Assembly: GCA_903827975.1 (NCBI GenBank)
Contig: CAIKKG010000001.1
Coordinates: 26,175 to 90,174 of the forward strand
DNA: 64,000 nt
Reading direction: 5' to 3'
DNA from: an uncultured bacterium
Lineage (GTDB): Bacteria; Patescibacteriota; Minisyncoccia; UBA6257; GWB1-50-10
A program made the translations under genes and the position numbers. Below the pieces are notes generated by a model. That model was not told the DNA's origin and made no database searches. It saw nothing but the letters and a program-made list of their open reading frames with translations. The first letter of the stretch is position 1, and every line of letters begins with the position of its first letter. Shown here piece after piece: positions 4,873-63,505 of the stretch.

Positions 4873-5178
4873 ATGAAATTAAAACCACTATTTAATCGCG
4901 TGCTTATTGAGGCGGTATCAGATGAGGCAAAGGCCACAAAATCAGGGATAGTGCTACCAGATAGTGCTGAAAAGAAAAAGCAAAGCAAGGGCATTGTTGT
5001 GGCGGTTGGCGATGGGAGGTTAAGTGAAAAGGGTGAGCTTCAACCAATGAGTGTAAAAATAGGCGATAAGGTCCTATTTAAAGAACCATGGTCAGACGAA
5101 AGCAAGATTGAAGATAATGGTAAAAAACTTTTCTTGGTCGAAGAGGAAGACATATTAGCAACAATTATTGAGAATTAA
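4873..5178 (+). CDS. groES: co-chaperonin GroES
   Basis: MKLKPLFNRVLIE...GIVLPDSAEKK...GIVVAVGDG matches canonical GroES. Confidence 0.9.
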   Translation: MKLKPLFNRVLIEAVSDEAKATKSGIVLPDSAEKKKQSKGIVVAVGDGRLSEKGELQPMSVKIGDKVLFKEPWSDESKIEDNGKKLFLVEEEDILATIIEN

Positions 5179-7952: not shown

Positions 7953-8716
7953 TGATAGGTCATGAATCAATACAAAAAGCATTTGAGAAACTTGAGCGTG
8001 AAGACTCATTGGGGCACGCATATCTTTTTTTTGGTGACTCTCAGATAGGAAAGGCTTCATTTGCGGAATGTGTCGCATCTTATATTGAAAAAGGCATTTT
8101 TGAAGTTTCAGAAACACAACTCATTGACTCCACTTTATTTCTACCAAACGAGAAAGGAAATATAGGAATTGATGAGGTCAGGAGTATCAGGAGATTTTTG
8201 TGGCAGACCCCACTCTCATCAAAAAAAAGAATAGCAATTATTGATGGAGCAGAGTCATTAACAAATGAAGCGCAAGGAGCAATTCTAAAAATTGTGGAAG
8301 AACCGCCAAAACATGGACTTATAATTTTTGTGACACACGATCCGAGCGCAATTGTGTCCCCACTAGTATCACGTTGTTCAAAGGTTTATTTTTCCAGACT
8401 AAGCACTCAGAAAATTGAAAACTATTTAATTGATGAGAAAAAAATATCAAAAACAGTTGCGCATGAAGTCGCACTAAGGTCATATGGAAGAATAGGTAGG
8501 GCACTAAGATTATTAAATAAAGAAACTAAATCTCCGGAAAACTTATCAGAAGAAATTATAGAAAGAATAATAGAACTTAGAGAGGCTGGCGTAGAGAAGA
8601 ATAGCTCTAAATTAGCATGGTTACTGGAGCGCGAGTCACTAATTGCCAGATTTAATGTAAATCCAAACATTCAAAAGAAGGCGGTTGAATATGTTGCCAG
8701 TCATTCCTATAATTGA
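7952..8716 (+). CDS. holB: DNA polymerase III clamp-loader delta' subunit
   Basis: AAA+ fold with a degenerate P-loop (GDSQIGKAS) and the SRC motif (LVSRCSK). The true start is probably the ATG at 7952 (MIGHESIQKAFEKL), overlapping the mreB stop as TAATG; the 7880 start in the ORF track is an in-frame upstream extension. Confidence 0.6.
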   Translation: MIGHESIQKAFEKLEREDSLGHAYLFFGDSQIGKASFAECVASYIEKGIFEVSETQLIDSTLFLPNEKGNIGIDEVRSIRRFLWQTPLSSKKRIAIIDGAESLTNEAQGAILKIVEEPPKHGLIIFVTHDPSAIVSPLVSRCSKVYFSRLSTQKIENYLIDEKKISKTVAHEVALRSYGRIGRALRLLNKETKSPENLSEEIIERIIELREAGVEKNSSKLAWLLERESLIARFNVNPNIQKKAVEYVASHSYN

Positions 8717-8723
8717 ACTATAT

Positions 8724-9272
8724 ATGAATCCATTAGAAGAATTTAAAGCAGGAATAGCAGGCGCGATACAAGAACTCAAAAAGGAGGTTGGTGGGGTGCG
8801 CGCGAATCGTCCATCGTCAGCTCTTTTAGAAGATATAAAAGTAAATTATTATGGACAACTTACACCAATGAAACATGTTGGTACTGTTTCAGTTGCGCCA
8901 CCACGCGAGCTTATCATACAGCTCTGGGACACGAATGCAGTTCAACCAGCAGCGAAAGCAATTGAGAGTGCGGCACTTGGACTCACTCCAAACACAGAAG
9001 GAAATACAATTCGCATTTTTCTTCCAGAACTTAGTTCCGAGAGACGCGATGAGTTAAAAAAATATGTAAAAAAGATTGCTGAGCAATTTAGAATTCAGGT
9101 GCGTCAGTTAAGGGATGCAGCAAATAAACAAATCGAGTTGCAGTTCGGCGAAGGGGAGATTGGAGAGGACCAGAAATTTAAACTCAGGGAAGACGTACAG
9201 AAACACACAGAAGCCACCAATAAGGATATAGAAAAAATTGTTGACGCAAAGATTGTTGAAATAGACGAATAA
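8724..9272 (+). CDS. frr: ribosome recycling factor
   Basis: RRF core ELIIQLWDTNAVQPAAKAIESAALGLTPNTEGNTIRIFLPELSSERRDELKK. Start is ambiguous (8685 or 8724). Confidence 0.8.
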   Translation: MNPLEEFKAGIAGAIQELKKEVGGVRANRPSSALLEDIKVNYYGQLTPMKHVGTVSVAPPRELIIQLWDTNAVQPAAKAIESAALGLTPNTEGNTIRIFLPELSSERRDELKKYVKKIAEQFRIQVRQLRDAANKQIELQFGEGEIGEDQKFKLREDVQKHTEATNKDIEKIVDAKIVEIDE

Positions 9273-35384: not shown

Positions 35385-36698
35385 ATGAAAAAAATTCTTC
35401 TAAAAATATTGCAACTTAATCTGAAGTTCCTTGCACGTGCAACCCTTGCGCGTTATTCACCTGGAATAGTTGGTATTACTGGAAGCGTAGGCAAAACATC
35501 GACAAAAGAAGCGGTTAGAACTGTACTAGCCTCAGAGCGTACAGTAAGGGCGCCAGCAAAAAATTTTAATAATGAACTTGGTCTTCCACTAGCAATATTG
35601 GGTGACTGGGAAACAACTGGAGGCGTTTTCTTTTGGTTAAAAGTTTTACTTGTCTCAACTTGGAGATTAATTATTAAATCGAGTGATTATCCAGAGATAC
35701 TAATTCTTGAATATGCAGTAGATAAGCCAGGGGACATGAGGTATCTTCTTGAGATTGCAAGGCCTCATATAGGAATTTTTACAGCAATGGGCGAGATTCC
35801 AGTGCACGTTGAATTTTTTACAGGTCCCGAGGCTATCATGCGTGAAAAGTCGCGACTTATAAGTCAGTTACCAGCAACAGGATTTGCAATTTTAAATGCG
35901 GATGATGAGTTGGTTATGGAGGCAAAGTCACAGACACGTTCGCAGGTTATGACGTTTGGATTTGATGAGAAGGCAGATTTGAGAATAAGTAATTTCACTA
36001 ATAATTTTGACGGTAAGTCCGGTGGAATTGCATGTAAACTTACATACGGTGGGAGCGTGGTACCAGTTAGGATTGATCGTGCATTGGGAAAGGCTCAGGC
36101 ATATTCGATTGGAGCAGCTGCAGTTACTGGACTTATCTTTGGACTAAATCTTGTAAAAATTGCTGAAGCACTTTCCGCATATGAGGCGCCAGCAGGAAGG
36201 TTGAAATTAATTCGAGGAGTAAGAGAAAGTTTTTTGATTGATGATACATATAATGCTGCTCCGACAGCGATGCATTCTGCACTCGATACATTAAAGTCAC
36301 TTAATGCAAAAAGAAAAATTGCTGTGCTGGGTGATATGTTGGAAATCGGAAAATATACGCTTGAGGTTCATGAGGGCGTTGGTAAATCATTAAAGAAATT
36401 AGGCGTTGATATGCTTATAACAGTTGGGATAAGGGGAAAGCTAATTGCTGAAGCGGCTATTAGAGGTGGATTATCTGAGAAGGTAGTATTCACATTTATG
36501 GATGTGAATGAGGCGGCTACATTTTTAGAGTCAGAGATTCAGAAGGGAGATTTAATACTTGTTAAGGCGTCGCAGGGTGTAAGACTAGAGAAATTAGTAA
36601 AAGAGGTAATGGCTGAGCCAACGCGGGCTAAGGAGTTATTAACAAGACAAGATGATGAGTGGGTTAAAAGATTGGGTATGTATGAGAGTAGTGAATAA
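35385..36698 (+). CDS. murF: Mur ligase, probably UDP-MurNAc-tripeptide--D-Ala-D-Ala ligase
   Basis: GITGSVGKTSTKE P-loop and Mur ligase central/C-terminal domains; position after ftsI. Confidence 0.7.
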   Translation: MKKILLKILQLNLKFLARATLARYSPGIVGITGSVGKTSTKEAVRTVLASERTVRAPAKNFNNELGLPLAILGDWETTGGVFFWLKVLLVSTWRLIIKSSDYPEILILEYAVDKPGDMRYLLEIARPHIGIFTAMGEIPVHVEFFTGPEAIMREKSRLISQLPATGFAILNADDELVMEAKSQTRSQVMTFGFDEKADLRISNFTNNFDGKSGGIACKLTYGGSVVPVRIDRALGKAQAYSIGAAAVTGLIFGLNLVKIAEALSAYEAPAGRLKLIRGVRESFLIDDTYNAAPTAMHSALDTLKSLNAKRKIAVLGDMLEIGKYTLEVHEGVGKSLKKLGVDMLITVGIRGKLIAEAAIRGGLSEKVVFTFMDVNEAATFLESEIQKGDLILVKASQGVRLEKLVKEVMAEPTRAKELLTRQDDEWVKRLGMYESSE

Positions 36699-36745
36699 TT
36701 TGAGGTTGCACTTTACTATAAAATACGTACAATAATTCTTGCTAT

Positions 36746-36816
36746 GGCCTTATCGTCTAGTGGTAGGACAATGCCCTCTCACGGCATAAACAGGGGTCCG
36801 ATTCCCCTTGGGGCTA
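36746..36816 (+). tRNA. tRNA-Glu (anticodon CTC) with three G-U pairs in the acceptor stem
   Basis: GGCCTTA-TC-GTCT-AGTGGTA-GGAC-A-ATGCC-CT-CTC-AC-GGCAT-AAAC-AGGGG-TCCGATT-CCCCT-TGGGGCT-A; close to canonical bacterial tRNA-Glu apart from the acceptor wobbles. Confidence 0.7.
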
Positions 36817-36990
36817 CATGATTAAAAATACCCTACTGATTAAGTAGGGTATTTTTAATCATCATATCTTATTAGGGGAAGCGGACAGTGGAGGGGGTCG
36901 GGGAACCGCGTTCGGTTCCCCGTGTAGGAAAATATTAAAAACCGAGGGTTTTTAAAAGCGGAACCAGTCTTACTTGTGAAGCGCGTTCGC

Positions 36991-37008
36991 TTCCCCTTGG
37001 GGCTACAT
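36991..37008 (+). repeat. direct repeat copying the tRNA-Glu 3' end (TTCCCCTTGGGGCTACAT, 18/18 identical to 36802-36819)
   Basis: Exact 18 bp repeat 189 bp downstream of the original; a further degenerate copy (TTCCCCGTGTAGG) lies at 36914-36928; each copy is followed by a hairpin. Confidence 0.6.
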
Positions 37009-37209
37009 TAGTAAAAACAACTCCATGCTAGGGGTTGTTTTTAATTTTCAATAAACAATTTTAAATTTTAAAACTGGTAACTAGACAAGTAGACTGCATA
37101 AAAGCATGGAAATCCATTTTTAAAATTTACTATAATCTACGTAAAATAGTGTGGATTTTGCAGCATTGTGCTTACTCTAATTTTTCTGTATCTTGTATGT
37201 ATATAATCG

Positions 37210-37872
37210 ATGTTTAATGAATTAATTTCACAAATCACTCCTCTTATTCAACACTACGGCGCGTGGGGTGTTTTCTTTATTTCCGCCATTGAAGAAATAA
37301 TTGTGCCAATTCCGTCTTCATTCTCGCTCCTTGCTGCGGGTTTTTTCTTAGTTCCTGTTGGCGCAGCTCTTGGAGACTCGATGCTAGTGCTTATTTTAAA
37401 AGTAGTTATTCCTGCTGGACTTGGATTTGCAATCGGATCACTATTTCCATATGCGCTCGCTTATCTTGGTGGCGAGCCGATTATAAATAGATGGGGAAAA
37501 TGGATAGGAGTTTCTTGGAAAGATGTTGAAAAAATTAATAGATTTTTTAATGGGACGTATAAAGATGAGTTAGTATTAGTAGGATTACGATCAATTCCTG
37601 TTGTACCAAGCGGACTAATTTCAGTTGCGTGTGGCGTAGTGAGATATCCAATAAAACATTTTTTCCTTACAACATTTTTCGGTTCAGCGCTACGCTCTTT
37701 CTTTATGGGGCTCCTAGGGTGGTCACTTGGCGAGGCGTTTGTTATTTATGCCGACCAGATTTCAGAATTCGGTATGTATGTTGTTTATATTGTGACTGGC
37801 TTAGTGGCAATTCTGGTAGTAGCATTTTTAGTCAGGAAATGGCTAAAAAAACATAGGCACAAAGCGCATTAA
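37210..37872 (+). CDS. dedA: DedA/VTT-family membrane protein
   Basis: DedA core FISAIEEIIVPIPSSF; 220 aa with multiple transmembrane helices. Confidence 0.7.
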   Translation: MFNELISQITPLIQHYGAWGVFFISAIEEIIVPIPSSFSLLAAGFFLVPVGAALGDSMLVLILKVVIPAGLGFAIGSLFPYALAYLGGEPIINRWGKWIGVSWKDVEKINRFFNGTYKDELVLVGLRSIPVVPSGLISVACGVVRYPIKHFFLTTFFGSALRSFFMGLLGWSLGEAFVIYADQISEFGMYVVYIVTGLVAILVVAFLVRKWLKKHRHKAH

Positions 37873-41243: not shown

Positions 41244-43319
41244 ATGAACTCAAGAAGCAAAGCAGGATTCACATTGGTTGAACTCCTTATTGTAATCGCA
41301 ATTCTCGCAATACTTTCGGTCGCGGCAATCTTAGTTATAAACCCAGCACAACTCCTAAAGCAGGGAAGAGATGCCACTCGTCTATCTGATATGGCTGCTC
41401 TTAACTCAGCTCTCGCGCTTTACAATACTGACGCAGCTAACGGTTTCATGGGAACTTCAACGTATATTTATGTTTCAATTCCTGACTCCAGTCCAACGTG
41501 TGCAAATCTCGGTCTACCAACACTTCCAAGTGGTCAGTACAGTTGTGTTGCCTCCTCAACTCTCAGAAAGACTGATGGCACGGGATGGGTTCCTGTGAAT
41601 TTCAGTAGTCTAACATTTGGAAATCCATTACCGAATCTCCCTATCGATCCAATTAACGCAACTTCAACTGGAACATACTACACATACGCAGGAGGAAGCT
41701 GGGCCCTTTCTGCTGTTATGGAATCCACCAAGCAGGCCGTTGTAATGGCATCTGACGGAGGACGAAGTGCATACGCATATGAGGTTGGCTCTAATCTTAC
41801 GCTTACTCCAACATCAACACTTAGAAGGGCGATGCCAGTTGTTGCTCTTACAATAAACGCACCAGCACTTACAACATCAAAGGTGTATGACGGAAACACA
41901 TCTGCTGTGGTTGCTGCTGGCACACTTTCCGGAGTTGCAAGTGGAGATGTGGTTACAGTGTCTGCAACTGCAACTTATAATTCAGCTACAATCGAAACAG
42001 GAAAAACAATCACGGTTGTATATACGCTCGGAGGAGCTGACGCCGCTCAATATTCAGCTCCAACAAATTATGTTGTAAATACGGGCGCAATTACAACCGT
42101 TCAGTTATCAATAGGTAATCCAACAATTACAACATCAAAGACATATGACAGGACTACGTCCGCCGGGGTTACTGCTAGCACGCTTTCTGGAGTTGCTAAC
42201 GGTAATACAGTTACGGTGTCCGCAACTGCAACGTATGATTCAGCATCTGTTGGCACAGGAAAAACAATAACCGTTGTATACACATTGGGAGGTGCAAATG
42301 CATCGAATTATACGGCTCCAACAAATTATGTTGTTAATACTGGAGTTGTTTCAGCCATAGAACTACAAATAGGTAGCCCAACGGTCACAACATCAAAGAC
42401 ATATGATGGCACAAAATCCGCTGCGGTCACTGCTGGTTCACTCACGGGAGTTATTAGTGGTGACACGGTTACAGTATCCGCAACCGCAACATATGATTCA
42501 GCATCTGTTGGAACTGGAAAAACAATAACCGTTGAATATACATTGAGCGGAGCGAGTTCTGGAAATTATTCAGCTCCAGGAAATTATATTTTGAATACTG
42601 GAATAATAGTTTCAAATATTGCTAACACAACTTGTAAGGCAATTTTGGATGCTGGTTCTTCTACTGGTAGCGGCGTCTATACAATAGATCCGAATGGAGG
42701 TTCGAATGCTGACGCATTTCAGGCGTATTGCGATATGACTACTGATGGCGGTGGATGGGCGCTTGTGGCATTACCAACTGATTCGTACAGCATTTTTAGT
42801 GAGCCAACGGGTCTTCTCGATCCTACGGCATCGCTTGGAGCAAGAAATTCAAATTATTGGAGCTCGGGTTCAACAAATACATTTACTCAGATTAGATTTA
42901 CTGACTCTTGGCCTTCTCGCTCGTATTATGATATCGCGACGTTTGGTTCAGCTGTATCAATGTCGAGTCTCATGACTTCCTACCCAACATATTCTCAGTA
43001 TCCAGTAGCAACAACAAATATATCATCAAGTATTGGGTCAACATGCTTCATAGTTAGGGGGAAGAGTTCCGCTGATATGCAATGGAGTGACGGAGCCGAT
43101 TGGTTATTTATGGGATTCCATTCTCTTTGTTCGGTGCCAATATCCAATACAGATGCTTGGGATGTGTACAGTTACTCCAATCAGTGGGTGGTAGGCGCGA
43201 GAGATAACAGTGGCGATCCACAAAGTAACCCAACGGCTGTCGGGCGCATGACGGGCGGTTGTCATTGGAACGCAAATTCCTGTCCAGCAACAAATAGAAC
43301 CATAATCTGGGTTAGATAA
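41244..43319 (+). CDS. large type IV pilin-like protein with three tandem YDG-type (MBG-like) repeats and a C-terminal fibrinogen-related domain; candidate pilus-tip adhesin
   Basis: Prepilin motif KAG|FTLVELLIVIAILAIL; three about 82 aa repeats (TTSKVYDGNTSA...TITVVYTLGGA...YSAPTNYVVNTG); C-terminus GVYTIDPNGGSNADAFQAYCDMTTDGGGWALVA matches the fibrinogen C-terminal domain signature. Confidence 0.6.
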   Translation: MNSRSKAGFTLVELLIVIAILAILSVAAILVINPAQLLKQGRDATRLSDMAALNSALALYNTDAANGFMGTSTYIYVSIPDSSPTCANLGLPTLPSGQYSCVASSTLRKTDGTGWVPVNFSSLTFGNPLPNLPIDPINATSTGTYYTYAGGSWALSAVMESTKQAVVMASDGGRSAYAYEVGSNLTLTPTSTLRRAMPVVALTINAPALTTSKVYDGNTSAVVAAGTLSGVASGDVVTVSATATYNSATIETGKTITVVYTLGGADAAQYSAPTNYVVNTGAITTVQLSIGNPTITTSKTYDRTTSAGVTASTLSGVANGNTVTVSATATYDSASVGTGKTITVVYTLGGANASNYTAPTNYVVNTGVVSAIELQIGSPTVTTSKTYDGTKSAAVTAGSLTGVISGDTVTVSATATYDSASVGTGKTITVEYTLSGASSGNYSAPGNYILNTGIIVSNIANTTCKAILDAGSSTGSGVYTIDPNGGSNADAFQAYCDMTTDGGGWALVALPTDSYSIFSEPTGLLDPTASLGARNSNYWSSGSTNTFTQIRFTDSWPSRSYYDIATFGSAVSMSSLMTSYPTYSQYPVATTNISSSIGSTCFIVRGKSSADMQWSDGADWLFMGFHSLCSVPISNTDAWDVYSYSNQWVVGARDNSGDPQSNPTAVGRMTGGCHWNANSCPATNRTIIWVR
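41862..42600 (+). repeat. three tandem about 246 bp coding repeats inside the pilin-like gene
   Basis: Near-identical protein repeat units visible in the translation (aa about 207-452). Confidence 0.6.
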
Positions 43320-61195: not shown

Positions 61196-61444
61196 ATGTG
61201 GTTTGTCTACATTTTAAAAAGTTTGAAGGATGGGCGATATTATATCGGATCAACTTCCGATATTGAAAAGCGAGTAGAGCGCCATAATCATGGGGGTAAC
61301 GTTTCTACAAAAAATCGTAGACCACTTGAATTAGTTTATTTTGAATCATACAATACACGTGTAGATGCTACTCATCGCGAGAGAGTAATAAAGAGCTACA
61401 AAGGCGGCGAGGCGTTTGGCAAATTAGTTAATATGCGCAGGTGA
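61196..61444 (+). CDS. small GIY-YIG nuclease-superfamily protein (UPF0213/YhbQ-like)
   Basis: FVYILKS...GRYYIGSTSDIEKRVERHN matches GIY-x10-YIG plus the conserved Arg and Glu; 82 aa; the stop overlaps the first 10 nt of tRNA-Tyr. Confidence 0.75.
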   Translation: MWFVYILKSLKDGRYYIGSTSDIEKRVERHNHGGNVSTKNRRPLELVYFESYNTRVDATHRERVIKSYKGGEAFGKLVNMRR

Positions 61445-61517
61445 CAGAGTGGTCAATTGTAATAGACTGTAAATCTATCGCCTTCGGGCTACGGAGGTTC
61501 GAATCCTCCCCTGCGCA
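61435..61517 (+). tRNA. tRNA-Tyr (anticodon GTA), type II with a long variable arm
   Basis: GCGCAGG-TG-ACAG-AGTGGTCAA-TTGT-A-ATAGA-CT-GTA-AA-TCTAT-CGCCTTCGGGCTAC-GGAGG-TTCGAAT-CCTCC-CCTGCGC-A. Confidence 0.85.
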
Positions 61518-61526
61518 CAAATATAA

Positions 61527-61556
61527 TAAAAACTTCCTAATCAGGAAGTTTTTATT
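61527..61556 (+). terminator. terminator after tRNA-Tyr (ACTTCCT-AATC-AGGAAGT followed by T5)
   Basis: Perfect 7 bp stem with A5 upstream and a T-run downstream. Confidence 0.55.
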
Positions 61557-61638
61557 ATATCTAGTATTGGAGGATTCGAACCGCGGGCCGCAGTCCCCGA
61601 AGAGGGGACGCAGGTTTCGAGTTCAGTAGAACGAGAGG

Positions 61639-61670
61639 CGAATCCTCCCCTGCGCACAAATGTAATAAAA
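61639..61670 (+). repeat. direct repeat of the tRNA-Tyr 3' end plus trailer (CGAATCCTCCCCTGCGCACAAAT[A/G]TAATAAAA; 31/32 identical to 61500-61531)
   Basis: Exact 23 bp core repeated 139 bp downstream of the original. Confidence 0.6.
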
Positions 61671-61695
61671 CCCCCGCGAAAGCGGGGGTTTGTTA
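61665..61695. terminator. bidirectional terminator (CCCCCGC-GAAA-GCGGGGG)
   Basis: Perfect 7 bp GC hairpin flanked by an A-run and a T-rich run; serves the convergent GH1 gene and the tRNA region. Confidence 0.6.
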
Positions 61696-63288: not shown

Positions 63289-63360
63289 GCCACCTTAGCT
63301 CAGCGGTAGAGCAACGCTTTTGTAAAGCGTGGGTCCTCGGTTCAAATCCGAGAGGTGGCT
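63289..63360 (+). tRNA. tRNA-Thr (anticodon TGT)
   Basis: GCCACCT-TA-GCTC-AGCGGTA-GAGC-A-ACGCT-TT-TGT-AA-AGCGT-GGGTC-CTCGG-TTCAAAT-CCGAG-AGGTGGC-T. Confidence 0.85.
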
Positions 63361-63505
63361 CACTTAGATTTTGCCACACGTAGTGTTCGCAAAATAAAGT
63401 GCCCCGAAGAAGCGAAGCGTAAGCGGGGCATTGAAAGGATTTGAACCACTAATACTTGCTATTAACAGTACCGCATAAGAGGGTATAATTAGTTTGATAT
63501 ACATT

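Follow-up and report, generated by a model that had tools for sequence, protein, structure and literature searches.

Why is the 3′ end of a tRNA gene repeated a short distance downstream of the gene itself, with hairpins in between, at two places on one bacterial contig? The question is raised by the tRNA-Glu and tRNA-Tyr loci in a 64,000-nucleotide stretch of DNA from an uncultured member of the Patescibacteria. This whole stretch is called the window here; coordinates are those of the window, and features lie on its plus strand unless stated otherwise. Members of this phylum have very small genomes, in which mobile elements are considered scarce. The preliminary description of the window considered either a lineage-specific small element that targets tRNA 3′ ends or scars left by the excision of larger elements. 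In our analysis, both loci are best read, with a probability of roughly 60%, as carrying integrated small, non-coding, structured insertion elements of a superfamily that is widespread in Patescibacteria. The best-supported reading also takes these elements to be non-autonomous and to carry a replacement gene end, and the other explanations that we weighed fit less well.

Direct and Inverted Copies of the tRNA-Glu 3′ End

The intact target gene, tRNA-Glu(CTC), was located at 36746-36817 by ARAGORN and by the Rfam tRNA model (58.1 bits). The 18-mer TTCCCCTTGGGGCTACAT from its 3′ end has exactly two copies in the window, at 36802-36819 and 36991-37008. They are perfect and 189 bp apart, as first described, and shuffled sequences gave 0.06 matches with 3 mismatches permitted. 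The similarity in the flanks is also real and reaches further than the about 24 nt originally reported, the complete repeat being 33 nt at 88% identity. Its upstream member, copy A (36796-36828), comprises the 3′ part of the tRNA from the T-loop and the start of the trailer, while copy C (36985-37017) is the displaced duplicate. The T-loop, TCCGATT in the gene, is degenerate in copy C (GTTCGCTT), and the same GTTCGCTT variant was found in the related locus L001.

The hairpins listed in the preliminary description all exist. Two are terminator-like: T1, with a 20-bp stem, lies directly 3′ of tRNA-Glu (36818-36862), and T3 lies 3′ of copy C (37012-37043). The third, formed by the arms GGGGAACC and GGTTCCCC at 36899-36922, is named P1 below. 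In addition, we found an inverted copy of the T-loop and the 3′ strand of the T-stem at 36874-36886 (AGGGGAAGCGGAC). This arm B is 13 nt long and is 92% complementary to copy A and likewise to copy C. In the predicted fold from B to C, a 13-bp closing stem encloses the internal hairpins and leaves the 3′ strand of the tRNA acceptor as a single-stranded tail.

Two further features of this locus were observed. The T-loop TCCGATT has a C at the position of the near-universal U55 (36796-36808); this loop is common to the window, L001, L002, L026, and L078, and TTCAATT is found in L003 and L004. A 23-nt promoter-like sequence, TTTACTATAAAATACGTACAATA, lies upstream of tRNA-Glu (36712-36734), and a second copy with 87% identity (37126-37148) lies 3′ of the Glu element, where it overlaps the best promoter-like site before dedA.

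A Structured Core Shared by a Large Family

Between arm B and copy C lie a core (36886-36964), which is matched by the covariance model R1 with 82 bits (E = 6e-19), and a P3 region (36965-36984), which spaces the core from copy C and differs in length and sequence across the family. The Glu core reads, in order, GGAG-GGGGTC, hairpin P1 (36899-36922), GTGTAGGAA, hairpin P2 (36935-36955, loop CCGAGGG), and AAAAGCG, with GTGNNGGAA between P1 and P2. The stretch at 36910-36942, previously taken for a weak third copy of the tRNA end, has to be reassigned. It consists of the 3′ strand of P1 and the motif CCCGTGTAGGAA and, since this motif is invariant in 76 family members beside unrelated tRNA and protein genes, it is not a tRNA-end copy.

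The family pattern of the Glu core (GGGGTCGGG, then CCCG, then AAYCGWGGG) was found at no fewer than 120 loci when metagenomes were scanned (>=120). Model R1, built from an alignment of 76 cores (A1), gave 93 matches at E <= 0.001 among the 100 metagenome loci listed from the pattern scan. Among the 81 genome sources it gave 9 matches at E < 1e-4, spread over the window and 7 other loci (8 sources), with two matches in L035. Nearly all pattern matches were retrieved by R1, the exceptions being G+C-rich coding false positives. The search for the module beyond the window was successful: at the least, 86 loci in metagenomes and 8 in genomes have the family-1 core. Lineages in which MurF is only 53-60% identical are among those that have it. 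In contigs of the viral database IMG/VR, the strict pattern had 0 matches and a loose pattern had 10, none of them confirmed by R1, and a viral origin was rejected on this basis.

Covariation in hairpins P1 and P2 is strong. In the 76-core alignment, the paired fraction of cells is 96%, a percentage that is inflated by the choice of members for having stems. Cells changed on both sides numbered 218 compared with 69.5 in shuffles, none of the 500 shuffles reached 218, and controls with slid alignments stayed far below the observed covariation. The core is under clear structural constraint. Counts of G-U versus A-C pairs gave no indication of RNA versus DNA or of the functional strand. In L120, three model matches were seen in one locus (8424-8773 and 5064-5159), one of them with a tRNA-like fragment within P1; an element may have inserted into an element here.

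A core of this kind could instead be a structured RNA that benefits the host after tRNA and housekeeping genes, through processing, termination, or a decoy function, with the duplicated gene end and arm B being required for its folding or action. The strong covariation and the invariant loop nucleotides would be expected of such an RNA, and a host function could equally well underlie the strong purifying selection on both hairpins and the loops. The conservation across lineages with MurF 53-60% identical and the stable folds sitting between terminators also fit. However, no promoter-like site was found between T1 and B, and the core has no match to an Rfam family: with Rfam 15, only tRNAs reached the gathering threshold, and nothing credible appeared at E <= 10 across 36600-37250. 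Likewise, no convincing likeness to hammerhead, HDV-like, hairpin, or twister ribozymes, tmRNA, SRP RNA, or RNase P RNA was seen in a comparison by eye. Together with the distribution of the elements, discussed below, these results make a host RNA an unlikely explanation.

Layout of the Elements and Their Targets

The elements have a fixed order: an intact gene ending in copy A, a linker or terminator, arm B, the core, the variable P3, and copy C. They are uniformly small (about 140-190 bp) and non-coding. Arm B reads as the reverse complement of 10-24 nt at the start of A, and 4-9 nt, often GGAR, separate it from the core. Its complementarity to the repeat boundary of the intact gene was found in 33 of 38 elements versus 0.3% of shuffled controls. 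Of the 73 cores among the matches listed that could be evaluated, 38 follow a tRNA on the same strand at a distance of 25-80 nt, with nearly every isotype represented. The remaining cores are at protein genes, for example at the 3′ end of rplL, rplR, and the gene for a small membrane protein and at the 5′ end of dnaK and trxB. The same covarying core of ~80 nt is carried by more than 35 different tRNA and protein-gene targets. The small lineage-specific element first proposed therefore stands as far as an element at tRNA ends is concerned, but the family spans Patescibacteria and also occupies protein-gene ends.

In every case, the direct repeat agrees with the gene at its own locus. It is 15-83 nt long (median, 20 nt; longer in diverged form), and it is not detectable for about one-third of the cores. 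For tRNA targets, the repeat boundary is in the T-loop in most cases, and the T-loop remnant before C is mostly altered, with GTGA for GTTC or with AGCGAAGCG inserted. The P3 region is purine- and G+C-rich and variable; it has GCGAAGC in 11 of 38 elements. We also observed that this motif often occurs as AGCGAAGCG directly before C or within the T-loop remnant (for example, in L106, L111, L138, L146, L162, and L108). The oligonucleotide d(GCGAAGC) forms an unusually stable DNA mini-hairpin.

In all cases the intact gene lies on the side of B, regardless of its strand. A core at a 3′ gene end is therefore downstream in sense orientation, and one at a 5′ gene end (dnaK, trxB) is upstream in antisense orientation. 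This orientation argues for a logic at the DNA level and speaks against a host RNA.

In the elements at tRNA genes, A, T1, and B make up a single long quasi-palindrome of the kind expected from hairpin-driven template switching. The repeats might then have arisen without a mobile element, terminator hairpins having caused errors of replication (template switching or fold-back priming) that duplicated sequence locally. We regard this as very improbable. The conserved core common to ~100 unrelated loci is left unexplained, and B is not contiguous with the palindrome at protein genes; in L114, for example, where the repeat is 73 nt long, B corresponds to no more than its first 15 nt. Moreover, the copies of C at protein genes, which are diverged yet coding, indicate alleles of different lineages.

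An Unoccupied Site, Serial Insertions, and Coding Copies

The order murF, tRNA-Glu(CTC) is kept in most of 80 related genome loci. In the close relative L002, whose MurF is 85% identical to that of the window, tRNA-Glu is followed by one terminator and then by dedA. This is an unoccupied site, for which the preliminary description had proposed a comparison of syntenic loci. L001 (MurF 86%) and L004 (77%) are occupied and have a near-identical core, and the first terminators are completely different, T1 having nothing in common among the window, L001, and L004. Since the T3 of L001 is the best match to the empty-site terminator of L002 (34/44), C and T3 are probably the original gene end, and the distal part of A, T1, B, and the core would be the insertion; the evidence for C as the resident copy is mainly this one terminator comparison. 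For the window, we infer that T1 arrived with the insertion and that T3 is probably the original terminator of tRNA-Glu.

A copy of the gene's own 3′ end lies 120-180 nt downstream in about 14 of 66 tRNA-Glu loci, and an inverted copy is often present 45-75 nt downstream. The copies at these loci follow the local tRNA sequence always, and one tRNA-Pro locus has the same pattern. The grounds for reading the repeats as those of a small element are the presence of the same core by nearly all tRNA isotypes, the empty site of L002, and the match of C to the local tRNA. In L108, L158, L170, L141, and L024, elements of different core families have been inserted in series after one tRNA. From their distribution alone, we infer that the elements are mobile. 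The close relative without an element, the multi-copy occurrence, the serial insertions, and the existence of several core families all speak against a host RNA.

At protein genes, copy C stays coding. The 4 differences between the rplL copies are all synonymous, the trxB copies read MIYDLIIIGGGPAG... and MTYDLLLVGGGPAG..., and the dnaK and rplR copies behave similarly. As the C copies still code, both copies come from functional alleles, which would imply import from a diverged donor and not decay in place.

A direct repeat of a gene 3′ end a short distance downstream, followed by a hairpin, is also what the template and variable repeats of a diversity-generating retroelement, or another retro-copy of a mature tRNA, would look like. 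Patescibacteria are said to be rich in diversity-generating retroelements. Against such an origin, which we consider the least probable of all, the mismatches between A and C are not adenine-specific and no reverse transcriptase was found nearby. In addition, C keeps the gene's own non-CCA trailer (CCA was gained in only 2 of 20) and was thus copied from DNA and not from a mature tRNA.

Inversions were observed at the same loci. The tRNA-Glu cassette is inverted with respect to murF in 8 of ~68 loci (L001, L011, L016, L030, L031, L036, L042, and L075); 4 of these 8 have an element versus roughly 10 of 60 in the usual orientation. The inverted cassette of L001 consists of promoter, tRNA, and element.

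The tRNA-Tyr and tRNA-Thr Loci

The same pattern had been reported at tRNA-Tyr, and it was recovered here. The second target gene, tRNA-Tyr(GTA), was located at 61435-61518 by ARAGORN and Rfam, and a perfect repeat of 23 nt links 61500-61522 to 61639-61661, 139 bp apart, with 0 expected by chance. Its full extent is 32 nt at 97% identity, copy A (61500-61531) running from the T-loop to the trailer and copy C occupying 61639-61670. The architecture is that of the Glu element. A T1 hairpin with an 18-bp stem (61521-61560) is followed by arm B (61569-61582, GGAGGATTCGAACC), which is a perfect inverted copy of GGTTCGAATCCTCC (14/14 complementary) and is 10/10 complementary to copy C. The Tyr-type core (61583-61638; fold z = -3.6) has a hairpin at 61590-61611, a small hairpin at ~61616-61636, and the 3′ motif ACGAGAGGC. 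A T3 hairpin with a 10-bp G+C-rich stem lies 3′ of copy C (61668-61691, no strand assigned). In the fold from B to C, a 10-bp closing stem encloses the internal hairpins. The inverted T-arm copies at 36874-36886 and 61569-61582, which provide the closing stem of each element, had been missed in the preliminary description.

The Tyr element was not detected by the family-1 model R1. When the Glu and Tyr modules were compared, the architecture and a few motifs proved to be shared, but the sequence was not. The motif ACGAGAGGCGA of the Tyr element is common to a second core family (L026, L158, L120), the members of which also have ACGAGAGGC, and L031 is a related variant of this second family. 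It has in common with family 1 the succession GGAR, then P1, then GTGAGGCGG, then CCGAG. The ties of the Tyr element to the family are limited to its architecture and these short motifs.

Truncated relatives of the Tyr core were found 3′ of tRNA-Tyr in L214 and L215, abutting an inverted tRNA-Thr(TGT) (L214 2860-3000); these junctions suggest a rearrangement between T-loop copies. In the window, direct reading revealed a candidate at 63362-63450, after tRNA-Thr(TGT) (63289-63361). It has two hairpins, AGCGAAGCG, and an inverted T-loop copy, GGATTTGAACC; a core and a copy C are absent from it, and R1 had zero matches there. This is probably a truncated element.

Further observations concern the surroundings of tRNA-Tyr. 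An ORF of 82 amino acids of the GIY-YIG nuclease family (61196-61444) ends within the first bases of tRNA-Tyr, and the gene order rpsB, tsf, small ORF, GIY-YIG, tRNA-Tyr is kept in relatives. Some contigs from close relatives stop precisely at the 3′ end of tRNA-Tyr or the last base of the repeat (L211, L212), and others inside B (L005, L006), as is expected at repeats or strain-variable sites if these confuse assemblers.

Absence of Enzyme Genes near the Elements

The statement that no integrase lies nearby was borne out for the window and for more than 70 loci. Pfam searches of 40 ORFs of the window revealed no recombinase or integrase, transposase, or reverse transcriptase domain; 34 ORFs have housekeeping or other unrelated domains and 6 are without a match. 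Similarly, when 515 ORFs around the cores of more than 70 loci were clustered, no protein family occurred in more than 3 loci. Judged by eye, these neighbors look like ordinary housekeeping genes, such as those for r-proteins or a secY-like protein. No long-range repeats that would mark autonomous copies were found, and no 12-mer links the sequence after the core to DNA upstream of the local copy A. As a side observation, a 691-amino-acid protein of the window (41244-43319) has an N-terminal pilin-type methylation motif, three YDG domains, and short collagen- or fibrinogen-like matches, an unusual pilin-like architecture.

These results bear on the second possibility of the preliminary description, scars from the excision of larger elements, which found no support. 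In its most explicit form, integrase islands or prophages would have left attL and attR and been internally deleted to about 150 bp. Direct repeats of the tRNA 3′ end that start in the T-loop are the textbook att signature, and a relative has the empty site. However, the elements are of small and constant size, and the same conserved, covarying core of ~80 nt recurs at more than 35 targets, both tRNA and protein genes. Moreover, att sites have no counterpart of arm B, and neither long-range repeats nor recombinase genes accompany the elements in the window or at more than 70 loci. We consider such scars improbable, more so than a host RNA.

Comparison with Known Systems

The elements appear to be an undescribed family: we found no description of them in the full-text literature and preprints searched, the coverage of which is incomplete. 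The closest kinds are tRNA-targeting integrative elements with their integrase-less derivatives, MITEs, folded single-strand recombination sites, and guided insertion systems, and for each of these at least one of the defining features tested is missing.

With tRNA-targeting integrative elements and cis-mobilizable elements (CIMEs), the family shares insertion in the region of the T-loop, a replacement 3′ end that leaves the gene intact, and a displaced end that appears as a direct repeat, as well as empty sites in relatives and arrays made by serial insertion. Repeats of the tRNA 3′ part and an unoccupied site were both found, but no integrase inside or adjacent. The present elements have only 140-190 bp and no cargo genes, and a single core family is found at dozens of targets, among them protein genes, at the 5′ or the 3′ end. 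They further have a target-complementary arm B and a covarying hairpin core, both absent from att sites.

MITEs are likewise small, non-coding, multi-copy, non-autonomous, structured, and intergenic. Their ends are conserved, however, while the inverted arms described here (B and the start of C) are target-derived and different at each locus. The target-site duplication of MITEs is short and fixed; here it is variable, of 15-83 nt or more, and the insertion restores the gene end. REP and BIME sequences are also intergenic hairpins, often after genes, in alternating orientation and high copy number, but REPs are conserved palindromes without target-derived arms or gene-end duplications, in contrast to arms that vary by locus.

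Among folded recombination sites, the hairpins of integron attC and CTX phage attP (XerCD) resemble the elements in that the stem sequence varies and the structure is conserved. They act as a folded single strand, and the B:A stem would, hypothetically, mimic a double-stranded target site in the same way. As in CTX phage, the recombinase is not encoded in cis. Unlike attC, the elements have no conserved core site of the GTTRRRY type before C, the flank of B being GGAR-GGGGTC, and unlike integrons they have no platform, no array beside an integrase and attI, and no dif-like target, and they lie among housekeeping genes.

Finally, the IS110 bridge RNA and group II introns also place a conserved structured scaffold by a short target-complementary segment, which gives an easily changed specificity. 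No IS110-type recombinase, intron-encoded protein, or adjacent ORF family was found with the elements, their scaffold is far smaller than that of a group II intron, and those systems do not make long gene-end duplications; guidance by B would be hypothetical here.

Proposed Mechanism

We rate the elements as of the site-specific integrative kind that restores its target. The mobile unit would consist of the replacement gene end, the terminator, B, the core, and P3. It would enter the target gene at the left edge of A, which is the T-loop in tRNA genes, with the gene remaining intact and its original end being displaced downstream as C. Such a layout is that of single-crossover (Campbell-type) integration of a small circular intermediate. 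For the Glu element, the junction of the predicted circle (P3 to the start of A) would read ...GAAGCGC, then GTCCGATTCCCC..., and then T1. The enzyme would be encoded elsewhere in the genome. Since B spans the crossover point of the intact target, it may specify or stabilize the choice of target.

A possible but doubtful further reading is that they represent the non-autonomous part of an insertion system that is guided by nucleic acid and can be reprogrammed. In that case, the core would be the scaffold for an enzyme encoded elsewhere and B a guide of 10-24 nt across the crossover point. The attached copy of the gene end would repair the target on insertion, and the system might act through a small folded single-stranded circle. 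If true, such a system could move among all tRNA T-loops and the ends of conserved protein genes with no harm done.

Significance for Patescibacteria

Read as small insertion elements, these sequences of ~150 bp at the ends of tRNA and essential genes, which they do not inactivate, would represent a novel means of persistence for selfish DNA where genomes are streamlined. They would also account for partial tRNA matches, contig breaks at tRNA genes, and local inversions in assemblies. With one covarying scaffold and a target-complementary arm at dozens of targets, guided harmless insertion becomes directly testable, and the pattern of scaffold plus arm points to an enzyme worth finding. If the core were a host RNA instead, it would constitute a new and abundant class of structured RNA in an uncultured phylum.
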